From positions 25,299 through 89,298 of the forward strand of contig CAYXLR010000007.1 in the NCBI GenBank assembly GCA_964466035.1: 64,000 nt of DNA, written 5' to 3'. Positions 7,784 through 64,000 of the stretch are shown one piece after another (position 1 is the stretch's first letter; each line of letters starts with the position of its first letter). The notes beneath the pieces are model-generated. The model made no database searches, was not told where the DNA came from, and worked only from the letters and a program-made list of their open reading frames with translations. The position numbers and the translations under genes were made by a program. The DNA is from an uncultured Thermotogae bacterium. GTDB lineage: Bacteria; Bipolaricaulota; Bipolaricaulia; UBA7950; UBA9294.

Positions 7784-8097
7784 CATACGAACTGAAGGCT
7801 AACACCTTCCTCTTCTACGTTACCGCCCGATTTGGAAAACAGACTCGAGGTTCATGAATGAAGAACTACCTCGTACTTCCTTTATCCGTTGGGTCGTCAC
7901 ATCAGGCGGAGGTGGGAAGCACCCTCCTTGTCTACGAAGGGCGAGACAGATCTTCTAGGTTAGAGCGTGTTTTTCCTGAGAACCGGTTTATCCTATAATC
8001 CCCTCAAGGATGACGTGAGGATGGCCTGACGATCGCCTGTCGATGGGGGAATCTAGCGTCTACATGCAGCCCTTGCCGGCTGCTATGGGGGAGTGAG

Positions 8098-11070: not shown

Positions 11071-11130
11071 GGGACTTCCGCCTCTCTGCGTACATGATCG
11101 AGCTGTAGCATCTGTTGAGGGTTTGTGTAA

Positions 11131-11571
11131 TTGGGCCCGGGTTCTCCAATCGTTCACCCAGGCTCTACCACGGCAAGCGCTGATGTCGAAGTCTCCTTGA
11201 GACGTCCGGTTGTGGTCTTTCCCGCGAAGGTTCCCTACGCTTGTTTCATCGTGTCCGAGGACGGTGGGTTCGAACGAGAGGCCGGGCCGTTCGTCAAGCT
11301 GTGGGCCGGGGTCTGCTCCGTGACCGGCTGGCGTTGCCGCTGTCCGCGCTGCGGCGGCAAGATGAAGCGGGCGTCCGCCCCCGACGAATCGTACAGACGT
11401 TCGAAACGGGCCGGCCCTCCTGCGGGGTCGGTGAGGATGGCCGGGCAATTGAGCACGCTTCGGAGTTCGGGAAGCGCCTATCGACAGGTCGAGATTACCC
11501 CGACCTACGATGTCTGCGCGGAGTGTGGCCATCGGTTCCGACGTCGAAACATCAAGTCGACCGTCGGCTAG
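11131..11571 (+). CDS. Hypothetical zinc-ribbon protein (true start unknown, TTG at 11131 is only the first possible)
   Basis: Two CxxC pairs ~60 aa apart (CPRCGG ... CAECGH); high-GC third positions; no recognisable family. Confidence 0.3.
   Translation: MGPGSPIVHPGSTTASADVEVSLRRPVVVFPAKVPYACFIVSEDGGFEREAGPFVKLWAGVCSVTGWRCRCPRCGGKMKRASAPDESYRRSKRAGPPAGSVRMAGQLSTLRSSGSAYRQVEITPTYDVCAECGHRFRRRNIKSTVG
11140..11165 (+). repeat. Island repeat copy C (GGTTCTCCAATCGTTCACCCAGGCTC)
   Basis: Identical 26-mer to 7758..7783; 70 nt after stop of 8098..11070; GC content rises shortly downstream. Confidence 0.85.
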
Positions 11572-19289: not shown

Positions 19290-19412
19290 CGGAGGAGAAC
19301 GCCGCGGGCGGCATTCTCCTGATGGGCGAGCCGCGCGATCTGACGATCGCGGAGAAGAACGCCGACGGACGGCGTTCTTCCGTGGGATGGGAAGCGAACT
19401 GAGGAGCACGAC

Positions 19413-19500
19413 GTGGCACAGCAGGTACGGGCGATTAAGGGACGCATAGGGAATATGGGACTCATCGTGCTCGGGATGTTCGTGCGGCCTGGCGGCCGCG
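19413..19500 (+). repeat. 88-nt repeat unit 1: decoy copy of atpG codons 1-14 (GTG start, RBS GAGGAG) plus shared tail
   Basis: First 42 nt identical to atpG 19727..19768 except at 2 positions (nt 1 G vs A, nt 6 A vs G); differs from unit 2 at 4 of 88 positions. Confidence 0.85.
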
Positions 19501-19555
19501 TAGGAGAATGTCGCGGGGCGGCATTCTCCTGATGGGCGAGCTAAGGAACTGAGGC

Positions 19556-19643
19556 ATGGCACAGCAGGTACGGGCGATTAAGGGACGCATAGGGAATCTG
19601 GGACTCATCGCGCTCGGGATGTTCGCGCGGCCTGGCGGCCGCG
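19556..19643 (+). repeat. 88-nt repeat unit 2: decoy copy of atpG codons 1-14 (ATG start) plus shared tail
   Basis: ATGGCACAGCAGGTACGGGCGATTAAGGGACGCATAGGGAAT then CTGGGACTCATCGCGCTCGGGATGTTCGCGCGGCCTGGCGGCCGCG. Confidence 0.85.
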
Positions 19644-19726
19644 GCGAAGAACGGCGCTTTGCGCCGTTCTTCGGTGGGCGCAGCAGATGTACGATGGAGC
19701 TTGCGAGGGAGTAGGGAAACAGACAC

Positions 19727-22727
<3,001 letters not shown>

Positions 22728-26650: not shown

Positions 26651-27454
26651 ATGACCGAGCCCGGCTTCCGACTCGGCGCGAGCGTCTGGGGGTACTACGG
26701 GCGCGTGCCCCCGGAGGATTGGCCGACGCTCCCCGACGCCGTCCGGGCGATCCTGTCGATCGATCCGGATCTTGGGGTCGAGGTGTGGGGATCGAAGTCC
26801 CTCGACGCCCCGGCGGCGCCCGAGGCGGAATGGACCGAGCTGGTGGAAGTCTGCCGAGAGGCGAGCTTCGTCACGGTCCACGTCCGCGGAGCCTTCTGGG
26901 CGTGGGATCCGACGGGCCTCCGGCGCGAGATCGACTTCGCAGGGCGCGTCCACGCGTCGGTTCTCGTCCTCCATCCGATCTGCCTCGGGTTGACCAGGCC
27001 GAGCGACCGGCTGGACGTCCCCGAGATCCGGCGCCTGGCCGAGTACGCCGCCGAGCGCGGGGTCCGGCTCGCGCTGGAAAACCTGGAGGACACGGTCTGG
27101 CTCCTCGACCGCGTGCTGGAGGAGATCGGCGGCGATCCGGAGGAGACGAACCTCGGGATCTGCATCGACACCGGACACGCGCACATGTCGCACGACGCCG
27201 GTCGCGAGCCGGTGACGGACTATCTCGAGCGGTACGCCGGGCAGCTCGAGCACGTCCATCTCCACGACAACCACGGCGCCTCGGACGAGCACCTCCTCCC
27301 CGGAGACGGGACGATCGACTGGTCGCGCGCCCTTCGAACGCTTGAAGGGATCGGCTTCGAAAAGACCGCCGTCCTCGAAGTCCATCCGGAAAGCGTCTCA
27401 ATCACGGAAGGGATTCGGCGCGGTCTGGCGTACCTGGCGCGGCGGTCTGCGTAG
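26651..27454 (+). CDS. Sugar phosphate isomerase/epimerase (xylose-isomerase-like TIM barrel)
   Basis: 267 aa from ATG 26651; LENLED...IDTGHAH...HLHDN metal-ligand pattern of AP endonuclease 2/TIM-barrel family. Confidence 0.75.
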   Translation: MTEPGFRLGASVWGYYGRVPPEDWPTLPDAVRAILSIDPDLGVEVWGSKSLDAPAAPEAEWTELVEVCREASFVTVHVRGAFWAWDPTGLRREIDFAGRVHASVLVLHPICLGLTRPSDRLDVPEIRRLAEYAAERGVRLALENLEDTVWLLDRVLEEIGGDPEETNLGICIDTGHAHMSHDAGREPVTDYLERYAGQLEHVHLHDNHGASDEHLLPGDGTIDWSRALRTLEGIGFEKTAVLEVHPESVSITEGIRRGLAYLARRSA

Positions 27455-27576
27455 GCGAAAGTCCCTCACGCCTTCTGCCTTTTGTGCGCGATCGGGCAAC
27501 GGGCGGCACCGTGCGCGCCGGCTTGTTGGGAACAGTTGCTCCAAGGTATGATAAGGCGCTTCGGCAGGGGGAGAAC

Positions 27577-28320
27577 GTGACAGTGAGGTCATCGGAACCG
27601 GTGGACAAGAACGAGCTCCTCACTCACATCTTTCCGTCGCTCGATTCCGCTGCGATCGACGAACTTGCCGCGATGTGCCTCGAGGTCCGCCACGACACGG
27701 GAGAGCTGATCGCACAGGAGGAGTCCTACGCGTCGGGCGTGTACATCGTTCGATCCGGGTTGGTCAAGATCGGGAAGTACGGAAGCACAGGAGCCGAAAA
27801 GCGGATTCTTCGTTTTCTCGGCGTAGGGGAGATGTTCGGCCTTGAAGCCGTGGTCCTGGATCACTCCACGCACGTACAGTACGCCAAGACCCTCATGGAG
27901 ACGTACCTTTTGTTCATCGAGAGGCACAACCTCCTCGCGTTTCGGAACCAGTATCCCGAGTTGTGTACCGACTTCACCCGCTGGCTCGCGCGGGATGTGG
28001 TGATGCTCGAGCTCAAGTTGACCCGCGACGCGGTCGAATCGGTTGATCGGAACCTCGCCCTTCTCCTGTTGGCCTTGGCGCACAACTACGGAAGCGGCAC
28101 CGAGAAGGGAGTCGTCCTCGACCTGCCGGTTCCCCGGAGAACCCTTGCCGAGATGCTCGGCGTGTCCGTGGAATCCCTCATGCGCGCCCTGAAGCGCTTC
28201 CGGGATCGGAAGCTCCTCGAGACCTCCGGAAGGCGCGTGACGATTACGGATGTCGAAAGCCTAAAGGAGCGCGCGAGAATCACCCCGTTCTACCTCTCCA
28301 TCGTCGAGGAGACCCTCTAG
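27577..28320 (+). CDS. Crp/Fnr-family transcriptional regulator (start GTG 27577 or 27583)
   Basis: cNMP-binding beta-roll (GVYIVRSGLVKIGK...GEMFGLEA) plus C-terminal HTH (RRTLAEMLGVSVESLMRALKRF); RBS gggggag. Confidence 0.8.
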   Translation: MTVRSSEPVDKNELLTHIFPSLDSAAIDELAAMCLEVRHDTGELIAQEESYASGVYIVRSGLVKIGKYGSTGAEKRILRFLGVGEMFGLEAVVLDHSTHVQYAKTLMETYLLFIERHNLLAFRNQYPELCTDFTRWLARDVVMLELKLTRDAVESVDRNLALLLLALAHNYGSGTEKGVVLDLPVPRRTLAEMLGVSVESLMRALKRFRDRKLLETSGRRVTITDVESLKERARITPFYLSIVEETL

Positions 28321-29041
28321 CCGGTCTTCGAACCTGCAAGACCGTTCATCGACGAGCGATGTGCGGCCCTCCACGTTCGTCTTCCTACTCGGGCATTGTC
28401 AGATGACCGTGCCTTCCTTAACGAAGGACAGACAGCAAAGCGAATCCTGCCACCTGAGCCGTTGTGGAATGGTTTCTTCGTACGCTTCGGATGGCGTTTC
28501 TACTCTGTTCATAGGCCCTAGGGAGCGGCGCTACGGAGTCCTATGGTTGCGATGATCGAAGGTTGAGGTGGTGAGATCGGCAAGAAACGGAGAAGAAGCG
28601 GCAAGTGTGTTGGAGCGTTTCGAGACGGAGGTTCGTAAGCAGGAGCCCGTTCCGGTGTAGGGATCCGGCGGATGCGTAAATGCGGTTTCCCGTACGACGG
28701 AGGTGATCGGAATGCGCGGCGTCACGAAACAGCTACTCCCTGAGCAAGTTTGGATCGCCAGGCTCTTCCGAGCGGCGTGCGCTGATGAGAGAGTCCTAGG
28801 AAGGCTCGGGATTTCGGTCGATCCCGCGGCCAACCGGCGTCCTTCTCCCGACGGCACCGCGAGAGGGCTCAACCCCTCTGCCTTGGCGAAAAGCAAGGCA
28901 CGATCCGAGTCCGCGGTCGAGAAGCCGGAGGACTGCGGTGTGCCCGTGTGAGACTCGATGCGGTCACGGCTCCGCTCTTCCAGATTCGCTGACTGTGTGA
29001 AGCCGATCTTCACGCGCTTCCAGCCGGACAGGGAGGGTACG

Positions 29042-29317
29042 ATGCTCTACCGAGTCTGGAACGTGGTCAATCGGCCGCTCGATGCTGAAGAGAAAGAGAC
29101 GCGTCGTCTCTTGTTCTCAGTCTGTTCGCCGAGTGAGGCGTGTACCGTGATTCGACTCCTCCAGGCACGCCGGTCGGAAGATCCCACCGTTCTGACGAGC
29201 GAGTACGGGCTGGAAGTCTTCGCAGCGGGCCGCTGGACGGAGTGGCGCGACCGGCGTGGGCGCAACGTGATGGAGTCCTTCCGGTCACTGCTCGTCGAGA
29301 CGGGCCCGCGAATCTAG
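29042..29317 (+). CDS. Hypothetical 91-aa protein
   Basis: ATG preceded by GGGAGGG RBS at ideal spacing; no recognisable motif. Confidence 0.35.
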   Translation: MLYRVWNVVNRPLDAEEKETRRLLFSVCSPSEACTVIRLLQARRSEDPTVLTSEYGLEVFAAGRWTEWRDRRGRNVMESFRSLLVETGPRI

Positions 29318-29432
29318 CCGGAGTGAGCCATTCCCCGGCCCCGGAACGACCCCACGCTGTCCCTCCGAATTCTTGGTTGTCTGGATAGATGCTGTCCGAC
29401 TGCCTTGTCGCTGACCTTCCTGGGGGTGATAA

Positions 29433-30218
29433 ATGGGCTTCAAGATGGACCTCACGGCGGTATGGGTTGGAATGCTGGCCTTCTTCTGTGAGCTCGTCGA
29501 CTCCTCGCTCGGGATGGGCTACGGGACGACCCTGACTCCGGTTCTGCTCCTTCTCGGGTTCCCCGCGAGTCTCGTCGTCCCCAGCGTCCTTCTCTCGGAA
29601 TTGATGAGCGGTCTGACCGCGGGTGCATTCCATCACGGATGCGGCAACATCTCGCTCAGGAAGGGAAGCTCCGATCGGGGGGTCGCGCTCGTCCTTGTGG
29701 CGACCGGCGTGGTCGGGGCCGTCGCGGCGGTCCATGTCGCGCTCAACATCCCGATGCAGGTCCTGAAGGGATACATCGGCGCGATGGTTCTCGCGATGGG
29801 AATTCTCGTCCTGGTCTTTCGCAAGTACAGGATTCGTTTCTCGTGGCCGCGGATCGTCTCGCTCGGGATCGTCTCCGCCTTCAACAAAGGGATCTCGGGC
29901 GGTGGATACGGCCCCCTGGTCGTGTCGGGACAGATCCTCTCGGGGAGCGACACACGAAGCGCGATCGGAGTGACCTCGCTGGCGGAGGGGTTCATTTGCA
30001 TGGCCGCCTTCTCCCTCTATCTCGTGATGAACGACGGACGGGCCTGGCTCGCGGGCAACTGGCGGTTCTACGTCCCGATGGTGGCCGGGGCGTTGCTTGC
30101 CGCTCCCGCGGCCGCGCGGGTGACGAAGCTCGCTTCAAGGAAGGTCGATCTGCGACTCGTTGTCGGGCTCCTAACGTGCGTGTTGGGGGCGTGGACCCTG
30201 ATCAGGACCTTCGGATGA
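29433..30218 (+). CDS. TauE/SafE-family anion exporter (sulfite exporter-like membrane protein)
   Basis: 261 aa polytopic; LGMGYGTTLTPVLLLLG start and internal duplication typical of TauE/SafE. Confidence 0.8.
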   Translation: MGFKMDLTAVWVGMLAFFCELVDSSLGMGYGTTLTPVLLLLGFPASLVVPSVLLSELMSGLTAGAFHHGCGNISLRKGSSDRGVALVLVATGVVGAVAAVHVALNIPMQVLKGYIGAMVLAMGILVLVFRKYRIRFSWPRIVSLGIVSAFNKGISGGGYGPLVVSGQILSGSDTRSAIGVTSLAEGFICMAAFSLYLVMNDGRAWLAGNWRFYVPMVAGALLAAPAAARVTKLASRKVDLRLVVGLLTCVLGAWTLIRTFG

Positions 30219-51420: not shown

Positions 51421-54387
51421 GTGAAGCCACACCGTCGACCGACCAGTCGGGTTCTGCGTGATCTGTACCGCAAGCCGGCCTCGGCGTTCGGGGCGACCGT
51501 CGTCCTCCTCTTCGTCCTCCTGGCGATCCTCGCCCCGTGGATCGCTCCCTACGGGCCGACCGAGCAGATCTACACGGACGCTCGACAGCCGCCGTCGGCG
51601 ACGCATTGGTTCGGCACCGATCACCTCGGGCGCGACGTCTTCAGCCGGATCGTCCACGGCGCCCGCAGCATCCTCTCGCTGGCCGGCCTCGGGGCCCTCC
51701 TGGCCGTCGGGGCCGGGACCGTCTTCGGGCTACTCTCCGGGTACCTCGGAGGATGGTTCGACGAGCTGTTGATGCGGGTCTTCGACTCCGTCCTCGCGAT
51801 CCCTGCCCTGTTGCTCGCCCTCGTCCTCCTCGGGACCGTCGGGCCATCCCGCGCGTCCGTCCTCGCGGTCATCGCCGTGGTCTACACGCCGATCGTCGCC
51901 CGCGTCGTGCGGAGCGAGACCCTGGCGATCAAGTCGCAGGGGTTCGTCGAGACGGCGCGCCTCCAGGGGGAGCGGCTCCCGCGGATCCTCCTTCGCGAGA
52001 TCCTCCCCTCGGTCCTCCCGGCGCTGTCGGTCGAGGCGGCGCTCCGGTTCTCGTACGGGATCTTCCTTGTCGCGTCGCTCGGCTTCCTCGGCGTCGGGGT
52101 GCAGCCGCCGAGCCCGGACTGGGGGCTGATGGTCAAGGAGGCGAGGACCTACATTCGGCTCGCCCCGTGGTCGCTCTACTTCCCGGTCGGCGCGATCTCC
52201 CTTCTCGTTATCGGAGTCAACCTGACCGCCGACGGCCTGAAGCGGGCGCTGCGTCCGTCGACCGAGGAGCTGTCTCCGCGCGCCCGCCGTCGGATCCTCC
52301 GCGCTCGGAAGACGGCCGGTGGAGCGAACAACGCGGATGGCTCCGAGGGCGCGCTCGCGTCGCTCGACGGCGTGACCGTCTCCTATTACCAGGACGGAGA
52401 GTGGCTCGACGCGGTCCGCGACGTCTCCCTCGAGATCCTCCCCGGCGAGACCCTCGGCCTGGTCGGCGAGTCCGGGTCGGGGAAGTCGACGCTCGCCCTC
52501 GCCGTCGCCCAGTACCTGGCCGCCAACGGGGCCGTCCGCGCCGGGCGGATCCGATTCGGAGGGAGGGACCTGCTCGGCCTCTCGCCCCGGGACTTGCGGG
52601 AGATCCGCGGCGCGCAGATCGGCCTCGTCCCGCAGAACCCGCTCGCCTCGCTCAACCCGTCGATCCGGGTCGGGGAGCAAATCGCCGAGATCGTCCGACG
52701 ACACGCCGGGGCGTCGATCGGCGCGGCGAGGGCCTCCGCGATCGAGCTCCTCCGTCGCGTCCGGATCGCGGATCCGGAGCGGGTCGCCCGTCGGTATCCG
52801 CATCAACTCTCGGGAGGGATGCAGCAGCGCGTCATGATCGCGATGGGCCTGTCGACGTCCCCGCGGCTCCTCCTCTTCGACGAGCCGACGACCGGTCTCG
52901 ACGTGACGACGGAGGCGGCGATCCTCGATCTCGTCTTCGATCTCCTCGGATCGGGGGACCGGGGGAGCCTCTACATCACCCACGACCTCGGCGTCGTCTC
53001 GCGCGTCGCCACCCGGGTGGCCGTCCTCTACGCCGGAGAGCTCGTCGAGACCGGCCCGACCGACGGGCTCCTTCGCGCTCCGCGACACCCGTACACGCGC
53101 GGCCTGCTGGCCAGCCTGCCGAAGCTGGAGAGGAGAGGGACGGCGCTTACGTCGATGAGCGGCTCGATCCCCGCCCTCGACGCGATCCCGACCGGCTGCG
53201 TCTTCCGGCCCCGCTGTCCGTGGGCCGCCGAGGTCTGCGAGGAGAGGCCGCCGATCGAGGCGATCGAGGGGGATCGCACGATCCGATGCCATCGATGGAC
53301 CGAGATCGGGGCGCCGCAGGAAGCGCAGCGAACCGTGGACACCGCGGCCGAGGACCGAGGCCGGAGGGTCGTGGTCCGTGCCGAGGACGTCGAGACGGCC
53401 TTCCCGATCCCGCGGTCGTTGGTCGAGATCCTCCAGAGGAAAGCACGGCTGGCCGTTCGCGCCGTCGACGGCGTCACGCTGTCGATCGATGAGGGGCGGA
53501 CGCTCGGCCTGGTCGGCGAGAGCGGGTGCGGGAAGACGACGCTCGCCCGGACGATCCTCGGCCTCGATGCGCTCCGTGCGGGGTCGATCCGCCTCGATGG
53601 CGAGAATCTCCCGCCGACGCTCCGGGGAAGGAAACGCGGAACGCTCAGACGGATCCAGGCGGTCGCACAGGATCCGGACCAGGCGCTCAACCCGCATGTG
53701 TCCGTCGCCGCCGCGGTGGCGCGCCCGCTGATCACGCTCGCCGGTTTCCGTCGGTCCGAGGCGCGGGCCGAGGCGCTCCGGATGCTCGAGCGGGTCGGGC
53801 TCTCCGCGTCGTACGCGTCGCGCCTTCCGGGGCAGCTCTCCGGCGGGGAGAAGCAGCGGGTCGCGATCGCACGAGCGGTCGCCGCGGGGCCCGATCTCGT
53901 CCTCTTCGACGAGGCGACGTCGTCGCTCGACGTGTCGGTCCAGGCGCGGATCCTCAACCTGCTCGCCGAGCTGCAGTCTGGCGGCGCCGGGGCGTACCTG
54001 TTCATCACCCACGATCTGGCCGTCGTCTCGCACCTCTCCGACGGCATCGGCGTCCTGTATCTCGGAAGGCTGATGGAGATCGGATCGACCGACGAGGTGC
54101 TCGCGCCGCCGTACCACCCGTACACCGAGGCGCTCCTGTCGGCCTTCCCGTCCCTCGGGCGGACGGAAGGACGCGCGCGCGTCCGACTCGAGGGGGAGAT
54201 CCCGAGCCCGATCGACCGCCCGAGCGGCTGTCCGTTCCACACCCGCTGCCCGAGGACGCTGGGGGCGGTCTGCGTCGAACGCGAACCGCCGTGGCGTCTG
54301 ACCGAGACCGGGCACGCGATAACCTGCCACATCCCGCTCGAAGAGCTCCGCCGGATCCAGGCGCCGCTGCTCGGAGGCGATGCGTGA
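51421..54387 (+). CDS. Triple fusion: DppC-type permease + two Dpp/Opp-type ATPase domains (DppD-like and DppF-like) in one 988-aa polypeptide
   Basis: N-terminal ~290 aa polytopic BPD_transp_1 permease ending GLKRALRP; then Walker A GESGSGKST / LSGGMQQR / LLLFDEPT + oligo_HPY C-domain; then second GESGCGKTT / LSGGEKQR / LVLFDEAT + second C-domain; no stop in between. Confidence 0.85.
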   Translation: MKPHRRPTSRVLRDLYRKPASAFGATVVLLFVLLAILAPWIAPYGPTEQIYTDARQPPSATHWFGTDHLGRDVFSRIVHGARSILSLAGLGALLAVGAGTVFGLLSGYLGGWFDELLMRVFDSVLAIPALLLALVLLGTVGPSRASVLAVIAVVYTPIVARVVRSETLAIKSQGFVETARLQGERLPRILLREILPSVLPALSVEAALRFSYGIFLVASLGFLGVGVQPPSPDWGLMVKEARTYIRLAPWSLYFPVGAISLLVIGVNLTADGLKRALRPSTEELSPRARRRILRARKTAGGANNADGSEGALASLDGVTVSYYQDGEWLDAVRDVSLEILPGETLGLVGESGSGKSTLALAVAQYLAANGAVRAGRIRFGGRDLLGLSPRDLREIRGAQIGLVPQNPLASLNPSIRVGEQIAEIVRRHAGASIGAARASAIELLRRVRIADPERVARRYPHQLSGGMQQRVMIAMGLSTSPRLLLFDEPTTGLDVTTEAAILDLVFDLLGSGDRGSLYITHDLGVVSRVATRVAVLYAGELVETGPTDGLLRAPRHPYTRGLLASLPKLERRGTALTSMSGSIPALDAIPTGCVFRPRCPWAAEVCEERPPIEAIEGDRTIRCHRWTEIGAPQEAQRTVDTAAEDRGRRVVVRAEDVETAFPIPRSLVEILQRKARLAVRAVDGVTLSIDEGRTLGLVGESGCGKTTLARTILGLDALRAGSIRLDGENLPPTLRGRKRGTLRRIQAVAQDPDQALNPHVSVAAAVARPLITLAGFRRSEARAEALRMLERVGLSASYASRLPGQLSGGEKQRVAIARAVAAGPDLVLFDEATSSLDVSVQARILNLLAELQSGGAGAYLFITHDLAVVSHLSDGIGVLYLGRLMEIGSTDEVLAPPYHPYTEALLSAFPSLGRTEGRARVRLEGEIPSPIDRPSGCPFHTRCPRTLGAVCVEREPPWRLTETGHAITCHIPLEELRRIQAPLLGGDA

Positions 54388-55331
54388 TGGGACGGATTTT
54401 GCTCCGGCGGCTCGGCTTCCTCTTTCTGACCCTGCTTTTGACCTCGGCGCTGATCTTCTCGGCGACGCAGTTCCTCCCCGGCGACGTCGCGCGGGTGATC
54501 CTCGGCCGCGAGGCCGGCGAAGAGGCGGTCGCCGCGCTGCGCGGGGAGCTCGGCCTCGACCGCCCGGCGATCGTGCAGTACGGGACGTGGCTCGGCCGGT
54601 TCGTTCGCGGAGACTGGGGAAAGTCGTTCGGGACCGGCCTGCCCGTCCGTTCGCTGGTTGTTGAGCGGCTGCGCAACTCGCTGATGCTCGCGGTCGTGGC
54701 GCTCGTTCTTGCTGTGCCGTTCTCGATCCTCCTCGGCGTCTGGGCCGGCTTGCGGGAACACGGGATCGCCGATTCCGCGATCAGTCTCGCGAGCCTCGCC
54801 GTCGTCGGGCTGCCTGAGTTCGTCACCGGCGTCCTGCTGATCGAGCTGCTCGCCCACCGTTGGGACCTGCTGCCGGCGAGCTCGCCGATCGCGCCGGGGA
54901 CCGGCTTCTGGGAGGCGCTGCCGTCGCTGATCCTGCCTGCATTGACCGCGACGCTCGTCCTCCTCGCCTACGTCGCCCGGCTAACGCGGGCCGAGGTCGC
55001 CGAGCAGATGCGCCGTCCGTACGTCCGGACGGCGGTGCTGAAAGGACTGCCCCGGCGGACCGTCGTGTTCAAACACGTCCTGCGGAACGCCCTGTTGCCG
55101 ACGATCACCGTGGTCGCGATCAGCTTCGGCTGGTTGATCGGCGGGATCATCGTGATCGAGAACGTGTTCAACTACCCCGGGCTCGGACGGTTGCTGCTGT
55201 TCGCGATCGACCGGCGCGACGTCCCGCTGATGCAGGCGATCGCGATCGTCGTCGTGATCGGCGTCGTCCTCGCCAACCTGATCGCCGATTTGCTGTACGC
55301 AGCCGTCAACCCGCGGATCCGGTACAGGTAG
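54387..55331 (+). CDS. DppB/OppB-type ABC permease
   Basis: 314 aa from ATG 54387 (GTGATG overlap with upstream stop); MGRILLRRLGFLFLTLLLTSALIF start and NPRIRYR end are typical. Confidence 0.9.
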   Translation: MGRILLRRLGFLFLTLLLTSALIFSATQFLPGDVARVILGREAGEEAVAALRGELGLDRPAIVQYGTWLGRFVRGDWGKSFGTGLPVRSLVVERLRNSLMLAVVALVLAVPFSILLGVWAGLREHGIADSAISLASLAVVGLPEFVTGVLLIELLAHRWDLLPASSPIAPGTGFWEALPSLILPALTATLVLLAYVARLTRAEVAEQMRRPYVRTAVLKGLPRRTVVFKHVLRNALLPTITVVAISFGWLIGGIIVIENVFNYPGLGRLLLFAIDRRDVPLMQAIAIVVVIGVVLANLIADLLYAAVNPRIRYR

Positions 55332-55338
55332 GGGGAGG
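55233..55338 (+). repeat. Gene-end repeat copy 0 (authentic 3' end of dppB-like gene plus ~7 nt after stop)
   Basis: ...GTCGTCCTCGCCAACCTGATCGCCGATTTGCTGTACGCAGCCGTCAACCCGCGGATCCGGTACAGGTAGGGGGAGG. Confidence 0.85.
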
Positions 55339-55485
55339 ACAAGCCGGGCGTCCAGACCTAGCGGAAGCTGGATACGTAGACGGCCAAGGAACGAGCTGCG
55401 AGTGCGCAAGCGAGATCCGTCCTCGTGAGCGACTTCAATGCGTGATTACTTGCTGTGAAGGCAGGTTCTGTAGTACGTATCGTGC

Positions 55486-56550
55486 ATGGTGTTCGAAGAA
55501 CTGAGCGATGATGACCTCTTGACGGCGCTCAACGAGGTAGTCAGTTGCGTCGGAGTGAGAGACGAAGAGCCACTTGCGGATTTTCTGCAGTTTCTCGAGA
55601 GGAGCGATGCACATGGCTGTGCACAGGAGATCTCGGCCCGCCTTGGGTTGCCCGTCCACATCAGTCTGTCCTCTCTTGAAGCGGGTAACGCTGAAGGGTT
55701 CGGAAGCGTCTTGCTGGCGCCCAGAGGACGGCCGCAGCAGAGCATAGCAGCACGAATCGAAATGCCACAACATCCGCCGATGATCGGGACTCAAGGTCTT
55801 CAGGGTTACCCGGTCCGTATTCGAGTTAGCTCGAACTGCTACCAATCCCCGGAGACCTTCGTCGCGGTACTGGCCCACGAGCTCTCTCACCTTCTCCTAG
55901 CCTGCCTGTACCATCCGAAAGGAGACAGCGAGCTATACGTCGATCTTGTTCCCATAGCGCTTGGCTTTCGTGACATCATCCGAAGAGGCCGGAAGGTCAC
56001 ACGTGGAATCATGGACGGAACACTGGGCAGCACACAGACGACAACGTATGGCTATCTCACCGATTCCCAGTTCGAGTATGCCTGTGACCACGTAGAGGCC
56101 ATCTTGCAGGCCCATCGGAAATCGTACGATCACCTTGCGGAGGTACTGGCACAGGTCCAACGCAAGCTTCGCGTTGTTACGCGAAGGTTGACGGCGTTCA
56201 ATCGATACCTCAAGCACCTAGACAGGCACCCAGTCGGGAGGATGAAAGAAGCCGATGCTAGACACATGGTGCGATACCATGACACGGGCTATTGCCGTGA
56301 CTGGAACGCCGATATCATGTCAACCCGAACCGCTGTCCAGGACGCGAGGCTGTCTGCACGCAACCCGAATCGCTACACGCATGAAGAAGCCGACCTGATG
56401 CAGGGGCACATCCAAGCAATCGAGCTTGCATGTCAGAGACTGAACGCGGTTGATTCCAGTATCAGAGAAGATCTAAAGATCCTGAGGCATTACGTCCCTC
56501 TTCTTCGCCGATTGCAGGTCTGGGTATCCATACATCGCGTGCGCGATTGA
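55486..56550 (+). CDS. Orphan 354-aa protein with HExxH zinc-peptidase motif and helical C-terminal domain
   Basis: AVLAHELSHLLLACLYHP; no signal peptide or TM; lower GC than flanks; family not recognised. Confidence 0.55.
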   Translation: MVFEELSDDDLLTALNEVVSCVGVRDEEPLADFLQFLERSDAHGCAQEISARLGLPVHISLSSLEAGNAEGFGSVLLAPRGRPQQSIAARIEMPQHPPMIGTQGLQGYPVRIRVSSNCYQSPETFVAVLAHELSHLLLACLYHPKGDSELYVDLVPIALGFRDIIRRGRKVTRGIMDGTLGSTQTTTYGYLTDSQFEYACDHVEAILQAHRKSYDHLAEVLAQVQRKLRVVTRRLTAFNRYLKHLDRHPVGRMKEADARHMVRYHDTGYCRDWNADIMSTRTAVQDARLSARNPNRYTHEEADLMQGHIQAIELACQRLNAVDSSIREDLKILRHYVPLLRRLQVWVSIHRVRD

Positions 56551-56666
56551 CAGAAGCGAATGCGGTTCGAGATCCTGCGGTCAGAGCTTCTGAACGCGTG
56601 GGCACGTGGGTCTGGCGGAGGCATAAGCGTCGGCAGCAAGGTGCGGAATCCATCTCACGCTTTCCT

Positions 56667-56765
56667 CAAGCGATCGCGATCGTCGTTGTCCTCGCCAACC
56701 TCGTGGCCGATCTCCTGTACGCCGCCGTCAATCCACGGATTCGGTGCAAGGTGTACGAGGGGAGG
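56667..56765 (+). repeat. Gene-end repeat copy 1 (degenerate dppB 3' end; stop codon lost, 12-nt deletion)
   Basis: Encodes QAIAIVVVLANLVADLLYAAVNPRIRCK vs authentic QAIAIVVVIGVVLANLIADLLYAAVNPRIRYR. Confidence 0.8.
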
Positions 56766-56900
56766 CGTCCGCTTGCCCGGGAACCGCCTACGAGCTGAAT
56801 GGCCAGGAGGATTGACGAGTCGCTCGCGAGAATTCGCACCAAGATCAGCCACCGGCGCTGGATGAGGCGTCTATGTCGGTGGTCTGAGGCCAGGTGACAG

Positions 56901-57248
56901 CTACTCAGCCTGTTCATGCAGGACGCTGTGGAGCATGGGCGCGAGAGGAGGAAGGTCGTGCTGAATCGTCTCCCAGAGGATGTCAGCATCGATACCGAAG
57001 TACTCGTGAACGGCAAGATTGCGCAGTCCGCGCATCTTCTCCCAGGCGATCTCCGGATGCCGCTCTGCGATCTCATCAGGAACGAGGCGAGCTGCTTCAC
57101 CGATGACGATCAGGTTGCGGACCACCGCGTCGATGGTCTTCTCGTCTTCGTGGAACTGGGTGTGCGAGAGTCCCTTCGCGTAGCGCTCGATCTTCGCGAT
57201 CCCTCCAAGCATGTCCTCAATCCGGATACGCCAGTCCCTAGCGTGCAT
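56901..57248 (-). CDS. hepT: HepT (DUF86) RNase toxin of a type VII HepT/MntA toxin-antitoxin pair
   Basis: 115 aa; Rx4HxY motif RNLAVHEY; overlaps upstream mntA by 11 nt. Confidence 0.85.
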   Translation of the reverse strand: MHARDWRIRIEDMLGGIAKIERYAKGLSHTQFHEDEKTIDAVVRNLIVIGEAARLVPDEIAERHPEIAWEKMRGLRNLAVHEYFGIDADILWETIQHDLPPLAPMLHSVLHEQAE

Positions 57249-57528
57249 AGACAGCCTCGCTGAGAATCTTGTCTCGCAGCCGCGGATGCAGGGCCTTTCG
57301 GGTCACCAGGTCGACAGGACAGCCGAGAAGCTTCTCAAGGCGCTCCTTGACTTCGAGGAATGCGAAGAAACCCACTGGCTTTGCGAACTCTACGAGGATG
57401 TCTACGTCGCTGTCCGGCCCAGCTTCCTCGTGGACTACCGATCCGAACACGGCAAGAGACTGGACTCCAAGAGCTTGCAGCTCCTTCGTTTGTGTAGCTA
57501 GCAGCTTCAGCACTCCGTCCTGCTTCAT
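57238..57528 (-). CDS. mntA: MntA nucleotidyltransferase antitoxin
   Basis: 96 aa; GS-x(9-10)-DxD: LAVFGSVVHEEAGPDSDVDILVEF. Confidence 0.85.
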   Translation of the reverse strand: MKQDGVLKLLATQTKELQALGVQSLAVFGSVVHEEAGPDSDVDILVEFAKPVGFFAFLEVKERLEKLLGCPVDLVTRKALHPRLRDKILSEAVYAR

Positions 57529-57693
57529 TCAGCTCACCCTTCACCATTCTACCGGGATGTCGAGCTTCCACATAGGTTGGCAAGGCGCCTGGGCCTGGGT
57601 CCAGCATTGACCGCTTTCTGCGGCTGCGGCAGGGGCAAGTCCCGGAATCTCGGAGGCACCGGCTTCTCGAAAGCGTGGCAAGACTCCTGTCGG

Positions 57694-57795
57694 ATGATCG
57701 CCATCGGCGTGGTCGTCGGCGTCGTCTTCGCCAACCTGATCGCCGATCTACCGTACGCTGCCGTCAACCCGCGGATCCGGTACAGGTAAGGGAGG
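57694..57795 (+). repeat. Gene-end repeat copy 2 (dppB 3' end including stop)
   Basis: Encodes MIAIGVVVGVVFANLIADLPYAAVNPRIRYR*; last ~45 nt nearly identical to copy 0. Confidence 0.85.
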
Positions 57796-58191
57796 AGCCG
57801 ATCGGTTGCTCGTCGTGCGGCCGTTCGAGCACCGATCCTGTGATCCGGTTGCTTACTGGGAGCGAAGCGTTTGAAGAAAAATACCTCGACGGCGTGAGAC
57901 GGAATCGAGACGTGGGTGGGCAGCCTCTGGTCGAGTATCTGGAGCTTCAGGGCTGCTCCAATGCTAAGGAGGAACATGAACATCGTCTTGCGGATCACGA
58001 TAGGACCGACGGGCTGGAGCGTACGGGTCGACCTCGGGCCGGTGAAGCTCTCCTTCCGATAGATCCCGTCGGGCGGTCGATCCCATCTGGCGGCCTGGAA
58101 CCGGGTCGACGCACCGGGAACGCCGAATCGCGTCGCCTTGTCTCGATGGAATCGGATCGCTACGCTCCCGGCGGACACGGAGGTGGTTCCG

Positions 58192-58902
58192 ATGCGAGCT
58201 TCTGTCTTGATTCTTGCGATAGCGATGCTGTGGGCGGTTTCGTGCGCGGTCGGGGCGAACGGCCCGGAAGACGGAGTTTGGGGTGGCGGTCCGATGCCGT
58301 CGGTCCTGTTCCTGGACCTCGGCGGGCTGAACGCCGCGGTGACGGCCGCCGGCTACCCCCGCATCAGCGAAGTGCTGTTCACGATGGGGGGAGCCAGCTA
58401 CGGCGGGCGGTTGTCCGACGGCGTTCGATTCGGAGGGACGGGCAGCAGCGGCGCGACGATCTCGAGGGACGGCGAGCGGAGCGCTCGCTTCGGTCTCGAA
58501 ACCTACGGTCTCATGGTCGAGAAGATCGCCGCGAGCGACGCCGGATTGACGATCGCCCTCGGCACCGTACTGGGAGGAGGGTCCCTCGATTTGCGGCTGA
58601 TCGATCGGTTTCCGGACTCGTTCGAAGACGCCGTCGGCGCGCCGTACGTCGCGTCGATGACCAAGTGTTTCTACGCGCTGCAGCCGTACGTCGCGTTCGA
58701 GGCGAGGCCGTTCCGCTGGATGACCGCTCGATTCCAGCTGGGATTCCTGTGGGCGCTGACCGACCGGTGGGCGTTCGAAGAGGTCGAGTTCTCCGGACCT
58801 CCTCGGACGCTGACCGGGCTGGTGGCCTCGTTGACGATGCGGTTCGGTTGGCATGAGGGGGACGACGAAGACACCCCCGCCGAAGAGGACGTCGAGGAGT
58901 AG
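58192..58902 (+). CDS. Hypothetical secreted Gly-rich protein with acidic tail
   Basis: Start ATG 58192 (RBS GGAGG); signal peptide MRASVLILAIAMLWAVSCAVGA; alternating-pattern beta-like segments; no family recognised. Confidence 0.5.
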   Translation: MRASVLILAIAMLWAVSCAVGANGPEDGVWGGGPMPSVLFLDLGGLNAAVTAAGYPRISEVLFTMGGASYGGRLSDGVRFGGTGSSGATISRDGERSARFGLETYGLMVEKIAASDAGLTIALGTVLGGGSLDLRLIDRFPDSFEDAVGAPYVASMTKCFYALQPYVAFEARPFRWMTARFQLGFLWALTDRWAFEEVEFSGPPRTLTGLVASLTMRFGWHEGDDEDTPAEEDVEE

Positions 58903-60700: not shown

Positions 60701-60901
60701 GGCTCTCCTTTGTGGCACCGTCTCGGAGAATCCCTCTGAACTACCGACCACATGATATCGCGCAGGCGCAGTGTACGGCGTGCTCTCCGTCCGGGTCAAC
60801 CTCGCGTGGGTCCGTCCACTGCGAGTGTCTGTGCCGCATCCCCGCTGCTCGGGATCGCGCGCGGCGGCGATGAGTCGAAGAGACTCCTTCAGGGATCCCC
60901 C

Positions 60902-60932
60902 TTGACCTAGAGCGCGCTCGAACTTGTATAGT
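60902..60932 (+). promoter_or_regulatory. MerR-type promoter with 19-bp spacer containing a dyad
   Basis: TTGACC - 19 nt (TAGAGCGCGCTCGAACTTG, dyad GAGCGCGCTC) - TATAGT; -10 ends 8 nt before merR ATG. Confidence 0.55.
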
Positions 60933-60940
60933 GCGTCGGA

Positions 60941-61348
60941 ATGCCTTCGGAACTGACCATCCGCCAGGTTGCCGCGAGGACCGGGCTCACCGTCCACACC
61001 TTGCGCTACTACGAACGCGCCGGCCTGATCCCCGCGGTCGAGCGCGCGGGGAACGGGCACCGGCGCTACTCCGAGGAGGACCTCGCCTGGATCGAGTTCG
61101 TGAAGTGCCTCCGATCGACGGGGATGCCGATCTCCGACGTCCAGCGGTACGTCGAACTGCAGCAGCGGGGAGACGCGACGTTCGCCGAGCGGCTGGAGAT
61201 CATGGAGTCGCACCGGCGGGCACTGAAGGCCAAGATCGAGGAGCTGAGCGGCTTCCTGAACCGGATCGAGGGGAAGGTCGAGCGGTACCGGGAGCGCGTC
61301 GCGCGGGAGAGGAGCGCATCGCGGGGGCAGCCGGTGCGGCCCGGATAG
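60941..61348 (+). CDS. MerR-family transcriptional regulator
   Basis: 135 aa; HTH LTIRQVAARTGLTVHTLRYYERAGLI, coiled-coil dimerisation helix. Confidence 0.9.
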   Translation: MPSELTIRQVAARTGLTVHTLRYYERAGLIPAVERAGNGHRRYSEEDLAWIEFVKCLRSTGMPISDVQRYVELQQRGDATFAERLEIMESHRRALKAKIEELSGFLNRIEGKVERYRERVARERSASRGQPVRPG

Positions 61349-61493
61349 CGGTCCCTCGGGTGGACGGTGAGTCGGTGCTCGATCCGTTCGATCCCTGCCG
61401 GACGTTCGCATGCACTTGTATCGATCCGCTCGTCGCATCGCACGCGATGCGTCGGGCCGAGCGGCACGTACGGTGTACGCCAAGGAGCAACGC

Positions 61494-62546
61494 ATGAACA
61501 CGGTGAGACTGGGAAAGTCGGAGCTGATGGTTTCCCGAGTGGGGATGGGCGGCATTCCGATCCAGCGTCCGCCTTTCGATGAGGCCGTCCGCGTGATCCG
61601 CCGCGCGCTCGACCTGGGCGTGAGCCTGATCGACACTTCCCGCGGCTACGGCGACAGCGAAGAGCGGATCGGGGTGGCGATCGCCGGTCGCCGAAACGAC
61701 GTGGTCATCGCCACGAAGGGGGGATGGGGAGACAAGGCGATCGCGGCGGAGCACATCGACCAGAGCCTCGAGCGGCTGCGGACGGACTTTATCGATCTCT
61801 GGCAGTTCCACGGCGTGAACACGCTGGAGGGGTACGAGGGGTTGTTCGGCCCCGACGGCGCGATGGAGGCGGCGCAGGCGGCCCTTCAGGCCGGCAAGAT
61901 CCAACACGTCGGCCTGTCGAGCCACTCGCCGGACGTCGTCAGGAAGGCGATCGAAGACGGCCACGTCGAGACGATCCAGTTCCCGTTCAACTTCGTCGCC
62001 CGGGAGTTCGCCGAGGAGCTGGCTCCCCTGGCGCGCGAGCACGACGTCGGATTCATCGCGATGAAGCCGTTCGCCGGTGGGATGCTTCGGAAGGCCGATC
62101 TGACGATCCGCTACCTCCTGCAGTTCGAGAACGTCGTGCCGATCCCGGGCATCGAACGGACGACCGAGATCGAGGAGATCGCGGCGATCGTCGAAGGCGG
62201 ACCTCGGCCGCTGACGGCCGAGGAGCGGAAGGAGATCGAGGAGATCCGGGAGCGCGTCGGAACGCGGTTCTGCCGACGGTGTCGGTACTGCATGCCGTGC
62301 CCGCAGGGCGTGGAGATCCAGCCGCTGATGACCCTGCCCGTCCTGTGGGAGCTGTGGCCCCCCGAGGTCACCTTCTCCGAGGAGTCGATCGGCGGCTACG
62401 CGAAACGGACCGTGGAGAGCGCCGCGAACTGCATCCAATGCGGCGAGTGCGAGGCGAAGTGCCCGTACGAGCTTCCGATTCGGGAGATGATCGTCGAGCA
62501 CGTCGAGCTGTATCGGCGCGAGATCGCGAAGCGCCGCACTGGATAG
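61494..62546 (+). CDS. Aldo/keto reductase with C-terminal 4Fe-4S ferredoxin-type cluster motifs
   Basis: Start ATG 61494 (RBS aaggag); LGKSELMVSRVGMGG, DTSRGYGDSE AKR core; CRRCRYCMPCP and CIQCGECEAKCP. Confidence 0.85.
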   Translation: MNTVRLGKSELMVSRVGMGGIPIQRPPFDEAVRVIRRALDLGVSLIDTSRGYGDSEERIGVAIAGRRNDVVIATKGGWGDKAIAAEHIDQSLERLRTDFIDLWQFHGVNTLEGYEGLFGPDGAMEAAQAALQAGKIQHVGLSSHSPDVVRKAIEDGHVETIQFPFNFVAREFAEELAPLAREHDVGFIAMKPFAGGMLRKADLTIRYLLQFENVVPIPGIERTTEIEEIAAIVEGGPRPLTAEERKEIEEIRERVGTRFCRRCRYCMPCPQGVEIQPLMTLPVLWELWPPEVTFSEESIGGYAKRTVESAANCIQCGECEAKCPYELPIREMIVEHVELYRREIAKRRTG

Positions 62547-62629
62547 TGTCGGACGGCTCGGGACCGCGCCTCCGACCGATCGGATCGTGCGGCCGGGGCC
62601 GCGAGAGCGTTGGAGAGGAGGACGTAACC

Positions 62630-63088
62630 ATGGGAACCCTGCTGGTTCTCTACCATTCCCAGGAGTACGGAAACACGAGGACGATGGCGGAAGCCATTGA
62701 GGAGGGTGCCGAGGCCGCCGGCGCGGAGGTCACCTCGATCAACACGAACGAGCGGCGACTGGACATCGAGGCGTACCGACGGTTCGATGCGGTCGCCTTC
62801 GGCTCGCCCGACTACTTCGGCTACATCGCCGGTGGACTGAAGGTCTTCATGGACGACTGGTACATCGCCCGGAAGGCGAACGACGACGGTCTCATGGACA
62901 AACCCTACGGGCTTTTCTATTCTCACGGAGGGGGCGGGGCGGTTCGCCGACCGCTGGAGGAACTGTTCGGCCGGATGGGTACGCAGGTCGGTGAGACGAT
63001 CGAATCGGTCGGACGACCGAGCGCCTCCGTGCTCGAAGCTTGCCGCGATCTGGGGCGAGAACTGGCGGCCGCCTCGAAGGGACAGTGA
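62630..63088 (+). CDS. Flavodoxin-like fold protein (WrbA/NAD(P)H:quinone oxidoreductase-like)
   Basis: 152 aa from ATG 62630; LLVLYHSQEYGNTRTMAEAI FMN-loop; in-frame part of ORF-track 61724..63088. Confidence 0.8.
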   Translation: MGTLLVLYHSQEYGNTRTMAEAIEEGAEAAGAEVTSINTNERRLDIEAYRRFDAVAFGSPDYFGYIAGGLKVFMDDWYIARKANDDGLMDKPYGLFYSHGGGGAVRRPLEELFGRMGTQVGETIESVGRPSASVLEACRDLGRELAAASKGQ

Positions 63089-63134
63089 CCCATCCGGCTG
63101 AGGTGGAGGCATCGAAAAGCAGGAGGTACGGGAC

Positions 63135-63629
63135 ATGAACGACGCGGACGTGGAGAGAAAAGAACTCGACTTCGACGCCAAGAGGCGAGAGATCGTCTCC
63201 TTCCTTGCGTCGTCCGACAACGCGATCGTGGCCCTGGCGACGGCCGCCTCCGATCGCGTGCTCGCACGAATGATCCTCGTCCTCTGCGACGGCCTCGATG
63301 TCTACTTCTTCACGTGGGGAGGCTCGCGCAAGTGCGAGCAGATCCGCGCCAATCCGCGCGTCGCGCTGTGCAAGGACAGGACGCAGATCGAGGGGACGGC
63401 CGAGATCCTCGGCGGCCTGTTCGATCCGACCAACGCCGCGATCCTGCAGCTGTTCGAGGAGCGATTCCCCGAAGCGGTCGACAACTGGCGCGACCGACCC
63501 GGAATGGTCCTGGTGAAGATCACACCGACGTCGGTCGTCCTCGCCGGAGCGCCGGGCGAGGAGCTGCACCTGCAGTTCGTCGATCTGGAGAACGGGATCG
63601 CCTACGCCGAACCGTGGGCCGACCGGTGA
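63135..63629 (+). CDS. Pyridoxamine 5'-phosphate oxidase-family FMN-binding protein
   Basis: 164 aa; split-barrel pattern VALATAASDRVLARMI...FFTWGGSRKCEQIRANPRVAL. Confidence 0.7.
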   Translation: MNDADVERKELDFDAKRREIVSFLASSDNAIVALATAASDRVLARMILVLCDGLDVYFFTWGGSRKCEQIRANPRVALCKDRTQIEGTAEILGGLFDPTNAAILQLFEERFPEAVDNWRDRPGMVLVKITPTSVVLAGAPGEELHLQFVDLENGIAYAEPWADR

Positions 63630-63852
63630 GATCGGCCGTCGTTCGCTCGGCGTGAGACGGTCGTGACCAGGTCGCGCCGAGGTCCGAGTTCGAGCTGACC
63701 CCGTCGCACAGACGACGAACCGGCTCCACAGAGGCGGCTCAGCCGACCTGAATGACTCGAATCGTTGGACGAGTCCTCCACTTGGAAAGCGCTCTTCGCG
63801 AGGATACCATAGATACCAAATCGGTATTCATGAGTTCCGAAGGGGTAACGCC

Positions 63853-64000
63853 GTGCCTTCACAAGATCGTATCCTGGACGCCGGACGGGAGATCCTGCTC
63901 TCCGAGGGGCTGCGCGCGATCACGACGAACGAGATCGCGCGGCGCGCCCGCGTCAGCAAGAAAACGCTCTACAACCTGTTTCCCGACAAGGACGCGCTGG
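63853..64000 (+). CDS. TetR/AcrR-family regulator, 3'-truncated by window end
   Basis: GTG 63853; ILDAGREILLSEGLRAITTNEIARRARVSKKTLYNLFPDKDAL HTH; upstream GATACC-ATA-GATACC-AAATC-GGTATT operator-like motif at 63803..63828. Confidence 0.75.
   Translation, partial: MPSQDRILDAGREILLSEGLRAITTNEIARRARVSKKTLYNLFPDKDAL

Follow-up and report, generated by a model that had tools for sequence, protein, structure and literature searches.

Reiterated ends of a dppB-like gene bracket two small cargo modules in an uncultured bacterium: a candidate tandem array of recombinase-less cassettes

In a 64,000 nt stretch of DNA from an uncultured Thermotogae bacterium (GenBank assembly GCA_964466035.1, contig CAYXLR010000007.1, positions 25,299 to 89,298; here called the window), the 3′ end of a dppB-like ABC permease gene is present three times, and the copies bracket two short modules, one of which carries at its two ends sequences that recur beside other cargo in other genomes. 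We interpret the region as a small tandem array of recombinase-less cassettes at an insertion hotspot, namely the dppB-like 3′ end, which would have grown by site-specific accretion with the enzyme supplied in trans, and we give this interpretation about an even chance. Events of this type are known, though the form here is unusually small, and the finding is more general than was seen in an earlier reading made from the letters of the window alone (the sequence-only reading). What is distinctive here is the very small size of the cassettes, the repeat of approximately 105 nt, the conservation of arms on both sides of it, the absence of an integrase from the cassettes examined and the presence of several types of anchor within 64 kb.

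The anchor gene (54387..55331, + strand) encodes a 314 aa protein with matches to Pfam BPD_transp_1 (1.5e-37) and BPD_transp_1_N, and it is the 3′ end of this gene that is reiterated. Copy 0 (55233..55338, +) is the functional gene end together with approximately 8 nt beyond the stop codon, copy 1 (56667..56765, +) is a degenerate copy at the place where the two modules join, and copy 2 (57694..57795, +) retains an intact frame with a stop codon; copies 0 and 2 would correspond to attL-like and attR-like cores, respectively. All three lie where the sequence-only reading had put them, and were recovered both by a repeat search and by gapped BLAST within the window. The repeat search placed them in one family (D1), with 55238–55334 as the reference, 56660–56756 at 69 % identity (ungapped) and 57696–57792 at 89 %. 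The BLAST alignments gave 88.2 % identity over 102 nt for copies 0 and 2 (E=1.7e-29; the longest perfect match is 29 nt), 82.7 % over 75 nt for copies 0 and 1 (E=2.7e-14) and 81.2 % over 69 nt for copies 1 and 2 (E=4.8e-11). The repeats are far above chance and the cargo between them is not duplicated; they flank both modules as direct repeats, which is how the boundaries of cis-mobilizable elements (CIMEs) are defined. Copy 1 has a 12 nt deletion and no stop codon, as first described, but the deletion is a polymorphism within the population, being absent from L012 and L013 (L numbers denote the contigs and loci compared). Copy 2 translates as MIAIGVVVGVVFANLIADLPYAAVNPRIRYR with frame and stop codon retained, and the stop codon and the GGGAGG that follows it are indeed conserved. 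Frame and stop codon are kept in three of the seven element-borne dppB-end copies, and the ratio of synonymous to non-synonymous codon changes in such copies fits purifying selection and recent origin alike.

The layout is identical at every place shown by look-ups of the exact proteins, which returned 12, 21 and 23 contigs from JGI and Logan assemblies. A misassembly is excluded because the same arrangement is present in more than 20 contigs of independent assemblies. Three contigs of other assemblies break at or near the repeats (the end of L007, the start of L016 and the end of L054), at points corresponding to window positions 55331 (the dppB stop codon), 55239 (the left edge of copy 0) and approximately 56610 (just left of copy 1), and these breaks could reflect heterogeneity there or merely low coverage.

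Module 1 (1328 nt, from copy 0 to copy 1) and module 2 (928 nt, from copy 1 to copy 2) have a GC content of 0.53–0.60, against approximately 0.65–0.75 in the flanks, which bears out the two low-GC modules of 1.33 and 0.93 kb reported from the sequence. The sole genes inside them are those for a HExxH protein (module 1) and for HepT and MntA (module 2), with no integrase, excisionase or transfer gene. Every base of the two modules is accounted for by arms, intact genes and spacers of 46–116 nt, and hence there is no room for a lost integrase.

The arms of module 2 carry much of the argument. The P arm (57587..57696, +) is approximately 100 nt of element-specific non-coding sequence adjoining copy 2 on its left, and the P′ arm (56754..56855, +) is approximately 90 nt of element-specific sequence directly to the right of copy 1 that forms the left end of the module. 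The P arm, which holds two direct CCGGAWTCYCGRAG motifs, the second of them inside an imperfect hairpin, does not resemble the dppB sequence that precedes copy 0 (z from −0.9 to 0.3) and shares 78–80 % identity with L026 r1, L029 and L034 (z=10–28), L026 having two copies; it is taken to be non-coding because the frame is broken in L029. On the other side, window positions 56669–56824 match L029 with 75.6 % identity over 168 nt (BLAST, E=1.6e-29), and the P′ arm gives z=11.6 against L029 and z=5.6 against L023. The P′ arm of L029 in turn matches the sequence that follows the stop codon at occupied dppB ends (z=22.7 for L017, z=8.6 for L023), and nhmmer searches with profiles of the P and P′ arms detected nothing in the cargo-free locus L018. 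The organisation of a lambda-type attP site, with element-specific arms on both sides of a core and an unoccupied target without them, is thus found here, for module 2 only.

L029 and L034 are metagenome contigs found by a scan with a P-arm pattern, and as the collection scanned missed the window's own contigs, these two new unit-bearing contigs say little about rarity. In L029, the unit (P, dppB-end mimic and P′) lies between a 265 aa open reading frame (ORF) and a TIR-domain gene on a 56 %-GC chromosomal fragment that includes housekeeping genes such as ruvA and ruvX but no dppB within 9.6 kb. Hence, the unit moves along with cassettes and does not belong to the dppB locus alone, and its position away from any dppB is an indirect hint of a circular form with a single att site. 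The cargo found beside such units differs from place to place: HepT/MntA in the window, an HD-CE/HATPase protein in L017, the 265 aa ORF and the TIR protein in L029, and, in L026, DUF3800 with two ORFs as well as a 7 kb block of amidohydrolase, ABC-transporter and nitroreductase genes. L034 also contains (reverse complement, 2296–2330) a second copy of just the first approximately 28 nt of the P arm (GGGTCTTGCATTGCCACATTCTC), which sits exactly at the point where synteny with L029 breaks, a hint that the unit has a discrete left boundary.

Other origins for the arms were considered and rejected. The P arm is not a decayed continuation of dppB (z about 0), and the P′ arm shows no similarity to the start of an ancestral downstream gene such as the DUF885 gene in L044. 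A structured RNA within the unit was not supported, the covariation term being unfavourable when six units were folded with RNAalifold. Rfam found three tRNAs only in the whole window and nothing in 55200–58200 at E≤1, and a promoter and terminator scan of the repeats gave nothing above shuffled expectation. Nothing was found when viral contigs were scanned with the P-arm pattern or when further units were sought by protein search through called antisense ORFs.

Module 2 is laid out as core-P′-cargo-P-core, and L029 has P-core-P′ in one piece. The former is the arrangement expected when a circle with an attP of the form P-core-P′ integrates, and on its layout the P-core-P′ unit resembles an attP site. 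Module 2, with HepT/MntA, would then be anatomically complete as an element brought in by site-specific recombination. Its putative circular form would carry an attP-like unit of approximately 270–300 nt, made up of the P arm, the approximately 105 nt dppB-end mimic and the P′ arm, and the mimic could stand in for the original end of the gene. If such a circle recombined with a dppB-end copy already in place, the cassette would come to lie between two copies, with P′ on its left and P on its right, and the arrangement between copies 1 and 2 matches this prediction. Module 1, with the HExxH gene between copies 0 and 1, would be a cassette of greater age, either decayed or of another type, and the recombinase would come from elsewhere, either from the host or from a transient helper element. 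The array now looks fixed in the species, and any mobility today is putative.

The crossover most likely took place near the left edge of the repeat, around GATCGCGATC at 55238–55247, where dppB homology starts abruptly; the logic is the same as that used for the Dehalococcoides ssrA islands (PMC3146451). The sequence-only reading had favoured a core at the right end of the repeat, for which no specific support was obtained, the sharp jump to approximately 88 % homology being at the left edge. Hybrid copies did not locate the crossover, as the CTGATCGCC and CTCGTSGC variants are present in genuine dppB genes too.

The region behind dppB is variable among relatives. The closest dppB records are from uncultured metagenome-assembled genomes (MAGs), two at 91–92 % identity labelled ‘uncultured Thermotogae’, one at 71 % labelled Candidatus Bipolaricaulia and one at 68 % labelled Candidatus Acetothermia. 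Upstream synteny (pseudouridine synthase, CYTH, GNAT, pyruvate kinase and the dpp genes) is kept across dppB orthologues of 66–97 % identity, and beyond the dppB stop codon everything is variable. The L010 lineage (dppB 97 % identical at the aa level, core nucleotide identity approximately 94–95 %) has both of the same modules. L018 (dppB 92 %) is cargo-free, with a spacer of 290 nt behind dppB and an 82 %-identical homologue of the window's downstream gene that starts approximately 350 nt after the dppB stop codon. A low-GC gene for the HD-CE/HATPase protein follows dppB in L017 (91 %), after which the contig ends. L026 (92 %) has DUF3800 with two ORFs, a degenerate dppB-end copy, the 7 kb block and a further copy at the contig end, and both of these further dppB-end copies are degenerate. 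Other neighbours, without repeats, are found in L025, L027, L044 and L045 (81–89 %). Cargo-free and alternatively occupied sites, which the sequence-only reading had suggested seeking in relatives, are therefore both on record, and because the content behind dppB varies from locus to locus the site is a hotspot in the closest clade. The earlier proposal that cassettes accreted at a recombination hotspot stands as far as the site variation and the recurring arms of module 2 are concerned, but does not extend in the same way to module 1, which has no arms.

The window contains further arrays of comparable design. Island 1 (approximately 5011–11165) is a low-GC array that begins at a tRNA-Ala gene (4934–5010), and its cassettes carry a 156 aa HExxH ORF, a 612 aa Mrr_cat protein and a 990 aa orphan. 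The units between them contain the 17-mer GTTCTCCAATCGTTCAC at 5639, 7644, 7759 and 11141, with an inverted GGTTCATGAATGAAGAAC near 7846. In L041, four integrase-free cassettes lie behind the gene for transfer-messenger RNA (tmRNA) and are parted by a unit of the Island 1 type (two 17-mers and an inverted GGTTCATGAATGGAGAAC); the 17-mer is invariant in the units of both arrays. The 3′ ends of the tmRNA and tRNA-Ala genes share CCTCCACCA only, which is too short for homologous recombination to explain the targeting there. The closest homologues of the module 1 HExxH protein (59 % identity in L040, 48 % in L041) are each followed by a unit of the tRNA/tmRNA type, and hence related cargo is found in arrays of both types. 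The Mrr_cat protein (window 5773–7611) shares a 330 aa region with the protein of the first L041 cassette (5985–7769; 27 % identity, E=4e-30), and comEC and dprA adjoin the L041 array. At atpG (window 19404–19784), two extra copies of the first approximately 50 nt of the gene lie between atpA and the real start at 19727, each followed by a shared non-atpG arm (GGGACTCATCGYGCTCGGGATGTTCGYGCGGCCTGGCGGCCGCG) and GC-rich hairpins, and the first two copies form a 143 nt tandem step with 89 % identity over 114 nt. That Island 1 and the atpG triplication follow the same logic as the dppB repeats, as had been noted from the sequence, is upheld by the tRNA-Ala units and by the atpG copies with their shared arm. 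No integrase gene or identifiable fragment of one is present in the approximately 11 gene-bearing cassettes (two at dppB in the window, three in Island 1, two in L026 and four in L041), and none was seen in the L029 island. In that island, a 326 nt, 81 %-identical duplicate of the 3′ part of ruvX (4388–4713 and 7387–7712, forward) brackets approximately 2.6 kb of other genes; further short repeats lie beside it, and the island also has the dppB-type P-mimic-P′ unit and the TIR-domain gene.

Taken together, the parallel arrays at dppB 3′, tRNA-Ala and tmRNA 3′, atpG 5′ and ruvX 3′ (L029), with cargo families common to the types of anchor, raise the question of whether all belong to a cassette system that is somewhat integron-like, in which cassettes of one gene or one operon, each with a unit of approximately 250–300 nt that mimics a host-gene terminus, would be shuffled by one or more recombinases encoded elsewhere and would not be leftovers of ordinary islands. 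We regard this wider reading as a whole as doubtful.

Several observations weigh against site-specific accretion at dppB. No integrase, transposase or recombinase was found in the 64 kb window by a coarse Pfam pass over all large ORFs, in agreement with the absence of an integrase or transposase reported earlier, and at eight other dppB loci the stretch of up to 10 kb that was examined behind the gene yielded none either. Nor were circular junctions seen. The arms are known from five independent sequences only, and variation of cargo content within the species was not found, both modules being present in all contigs of both lineages. Module 1 has no P or P′ arms, the sequence to the left of copy 1 giving z of 0.3–1.7 against P and that to the right of copy 0 z<2 against P′. 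The left non-coding part of module 1 (55339..55476, +) is not P′-like (z<2 against P′ arms) and differs by approximately 10 % and a 33 nt indel between the window and L010 lineages. Its likeness is instead, weakly, to the spacer that follows the stop codon in the cargo-free L018, the approximately 110 nt after copy 0 matching the first part of that spacer (L018 10909–10995, z=3.7–3.9). Copy 2, for its part, is followed by a lineage-variable spacer (57796..58132, 337 nt) that does not align with the 170 nt which the L010 lineage has there, and the first 35 nt of this spacer match a point approximately 150 nt into the L018 spacer (11040–11073, 29 of 35 positions, z=4.0). Such matches would not be expected from simple integration at a virgin dppB end, and the simplest two-step integration story is hence incomplete. 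If the matches are real, L018 still has the beginning of module 1 and would be a cleared array, not a virgin site; evidence for a decayed dppB-end copy in its spacer did not reach statistical significance (z=2.4).

A further point on the same side is that homologous recombination also acts on the repeats, as the patchwork of identity and the conversion-like patches in copies 0 and 1 show. The window and L010 lineages differ by approximately 5–6 % across 46–61 kb, with only two differing positions from 55477 to 57735. The near-identity stops inside copy 2 at 57736, to be followed by approximately 17 % divergence and then by the unalignable spacers of 337 and 170 nt. Within copy 0, six of the 22 positions in 55280–55301 differ between the two lineages, suggestive of a conversion patch. 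Outside copy 1, L012 and L013 are separated from the window by five SNPs in approximately 6 kb, and within copy 1 by a 12 nt indel, five substitutions and a 1 nt indel in what is otherwise a near-clonal population. Recombination clearly acts on the repeats, and the patterns on them look like homologous exchange with gene conversion, with no fixed crossover identified.

These patterns lend some weight to an explanation based on homology alone, which we nevertheless consider unlikely. A cassette flanked by direct copies of the dppB end would loop out or be released as DNA, be taken up by a relative, for example by natural transformation, and be inserted by general recombination through approximately 100–200 nt of homology (Campbell-type or ends-in), with no dedicated recombinase and with the arms as hitch-hiking flank. 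The lack of a recombinase in the whole window, the repeats of approximately 105 nt, which are long for an att core, and the presence of comEC and dprA beside the related L041 array all fit such a route, as do the conversion-like patches in copies 0 and 1 and the finding that lineages approximately 94–95 % identical in core DNA have two differences in 55477–57735, with the right breakpoint in copy 2 and the divergence of the shared interval limited to its edges. However, copies 0 and 2, with a longest perfect match of 29 nt, and the overall identity of 82–88 % make poor RecA substrates; the unit is also found in a 56 %-GC contig with no dppB nearby; the non-coding arms are 75–80 % identical across genomes of differing GC content although they enclose unrelated cargo; the tRNA-Ala and tmRNA arrays have only approximately 9–12 nt in common with their anchor genes; and the origin of the first duplication is left unexplained.

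It is also improbable that the array is a fossil, in which the modules are the remains of autonomous elements (a prophage, an integrative and conjugative element (ICE) or an integrative and mobilizable element (IME)) that lost their own integrase by deletion, and nothing moves. The standard account in the literature of how CIMEs arise and islands grow is decay followed by accretion (PMC5704250; bioRxiv 10.1101/2020.12.28.424599); in addition, copy 1 is degenerate, both lineages of the species have the array fixed, and the exact cargo was found in no other context. Yet neither the approximately 11 cassettes nor the L029 island has an integrase gene or fragment, modules 1 and 2 are fully explained as arms and intact genes, and the arms adjoin the cargo directly and are conserved between genomes in which the cargo differs. 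A local tandem duplication, replication slippage of the gene end or an assembly artefact is effectively refuted and has a very small probability indeed. The atpG repeats in the same window do include a true tandem step of 143 nt, but unique, unrelated low-GC sequence lies between the dppB copies, the arms come from outside the locus, and the structure recurs in the more than 20 contigs from independent assemblies. The sequence-only reading had already judged that the cargo did not appear to be duplicated, and the unique cargo and foreign arms agree with it. Site-specific accretion with the enzyme in trans is the explanation that we continue to prefer.

The cargo of module 1 (55486..56550, +) is a 354 aa protein with an invariant HELSH motif. 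It had been described as an orphan, which is incorrect, as 143 homologues were found across several phyla, making it a member of a sporadically distributed family of approximately 357 aa with invariant H131, E132 and H135 and a long helical C-terminal half. No family match was obtained in Pfam, NCBIfam or PADLOC, and an AlphaFold2 model (predicted local distance difference test score 87.6) has no fold match in PDB at E≤0.001. Module 2 encodes a HepT-like RNase toxin of 115 aa (56901..57248, − strand; Pfam HepT-like, 4.7e-29) with the Rx4HxY motif RNLAVHEY, and an MntA-like nucleotidyltransferase antitoxin of 96 aa (57238..57528, −; Pfam NTP_transf_2, 6.2e-17; PADLOC PDC-S09, 6.9e-27), the gene for which overlaps hepT by 11 nt. 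The MntA motif GSVVHEEAGPDSDVD, of the form GSx10DxD, is present in the translation. NCBIfam HepT_toxin and MntA_antitoxin both match with scores under the curated cut-offs, and the pair belongs, by its predicted domains and motifs, to the type VII toxin-antitoxin family without being an assigned equivalog. The label ‘defence-type’ given earlier to the cargo hence suits HepT/MntA but not the HExxH protein, which has no assignable function. The exact HepT and HExxH proteins were found at no location other than this locus in the two lineages, and the module DNA has no match in PLSDB or INPHARED.

Upstream of copy 0, the dpp operon consists of the gene for an SBP_bac_5 binding protein, a 988 aa ORF (51421–54387) in which a dppC-like permease is fused to both ATPases (dppD/dppF-like), and dppB, giving the gene order A, CDF, B; the fusion is kept in relatives (974–999 aa). 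The native right flank of the hotspot is a conserved gene for a 236 aa protein of no family (58192..58902, +), called in all contigs. Further to the right, at approximately 60900–64000, a block of MerR, aldo-keto reductase, flavodoxin and PNPOx genes lies between erythromycin-esterase and TetR genes; it is missing from the L010 lineage (compare L010 15044–15356) and is a second indel polymorphism near the hotspot. Elsewhere in the window, the low-GC interval 27400–29450 contains a 278 aa ORF, a 119 aa ORF and approximately 600 nt free of ORFs, with no repeated gene termini and no recombinase; neither ORF was assigned to a protein family, and the 119 aa ORF has no Pfam match.

If such small cassettes without mobility genes do insert at gene termini and are exchanged there, this would explain how defence and niche genes are gained by streamlined uncultivated bacteria, in which few mobile elements are recognisable; the lineage studied here is apparently related to Bipolaricaulota. 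The P and P′ arms and the 17-mer would then be defined DNA sites with which to find the missing recombinase. Were the array only a fossil, it would still be a clean and well-delimited case of tandem accretion at a protein-coding gene.

A literature search on genomic islands and integrases in Bipolaricaulota found no paper, and close precedents are known from other bacteria. Islands that are flanked by att sites, lack recombinase genes and accrete in tandem are established as CIMEs, which by definition have decayed from ICEs or IMEs and depend on a neighbouring integrase-bearing element for their mobilisation in cis (PMC5704250). Like the array, CIMEs have no integration or transfer genes, and one site-specific integration after another at the 3′ end of a target gene builds them into tandem stacks, as in the ICESt1/ICESt3 type. 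Unlike them, the array showed no integrase-bearing neighbour across the 64 kb window, nor was one found within the stretches of up to 10 kb examined behind dppB at related loci, and no pseudogenes or remnants of decay were found. The direct repeats of IMEs are 8–60 bp (PMC5704250), whereas that of the array is approximately 105 nt, and its cassettes are only 0.9–1.3 kb, each with a single gene or a toxin-antitoxin operon.

The ssrA islands of Dehalococcoides resemble the array in being tandem islands behind one essential gene and parted by repeats of its 3′ end. Of 31 such islands, 15 lack the integration module and have been suggested to be cis-mobilizable; each repeat adjoins a conserved non-ssrA motif that marks the insertion point (PMC3146451). 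These islands differ in being large, in having a repeat of 20 bp and in that about half carry a module with CcrB-like serine recombinases (DsiA/DsiB) beside attL; the array has no such module and its anchor is the protein-coding dppB. The L041 array shares the ssrA (tmRNA) anchor with Dehalococcoides, yet has no recombinase module. The microcin H47 island of Escherichia coli is excised and integrated independently of RecA through host functions, with several hybrid att products (PMC3191183). It is similar in having extensive imperfect direct repeats and no recombinase genes of its own, and in being small, but it is a single island of 13 kb, its repeats do not mimic a gene end and its mobility is experimental, whereas the array is known from sequence alone. 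Tycheposons of Prochlorococcus have their own tyrosine or serine recombinase, and integrase-free material there is regarded as degenerated elements with unclear boundaries (bioRxiv 10.1101/2020.12.28.424599). Islands shaped by tycheposons are like the array in their growth at one site (a tRNA gene), their scattered partial copies of the target and their defence and niche cargo, but the boundaries in the array are sharp and conserved.

Integrons, and clusters of attC sites lacking integron integrases (CALINs), consist of promoter-poor cassettes of one or a few genes, each with one conserved recombination unit, and the recombinase is encoded outside the cassettes. Here, too, the cassettes are mostly co-oriented with the anchor, the toxin-antitoxin cassette being reversed. 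An integron or CALIN of the familiar kind was rejected, as no attC-like hairpin (R″/L″-L′/R′) is present in the consensus fold of the six units and no GTTRRRY was found at the boundaries on inspection. The array differs from integrons in that no IntI or attI is adjacent, the dpp operon lying upstream, and in that its recombination unit mimics the terminus of a host gene.

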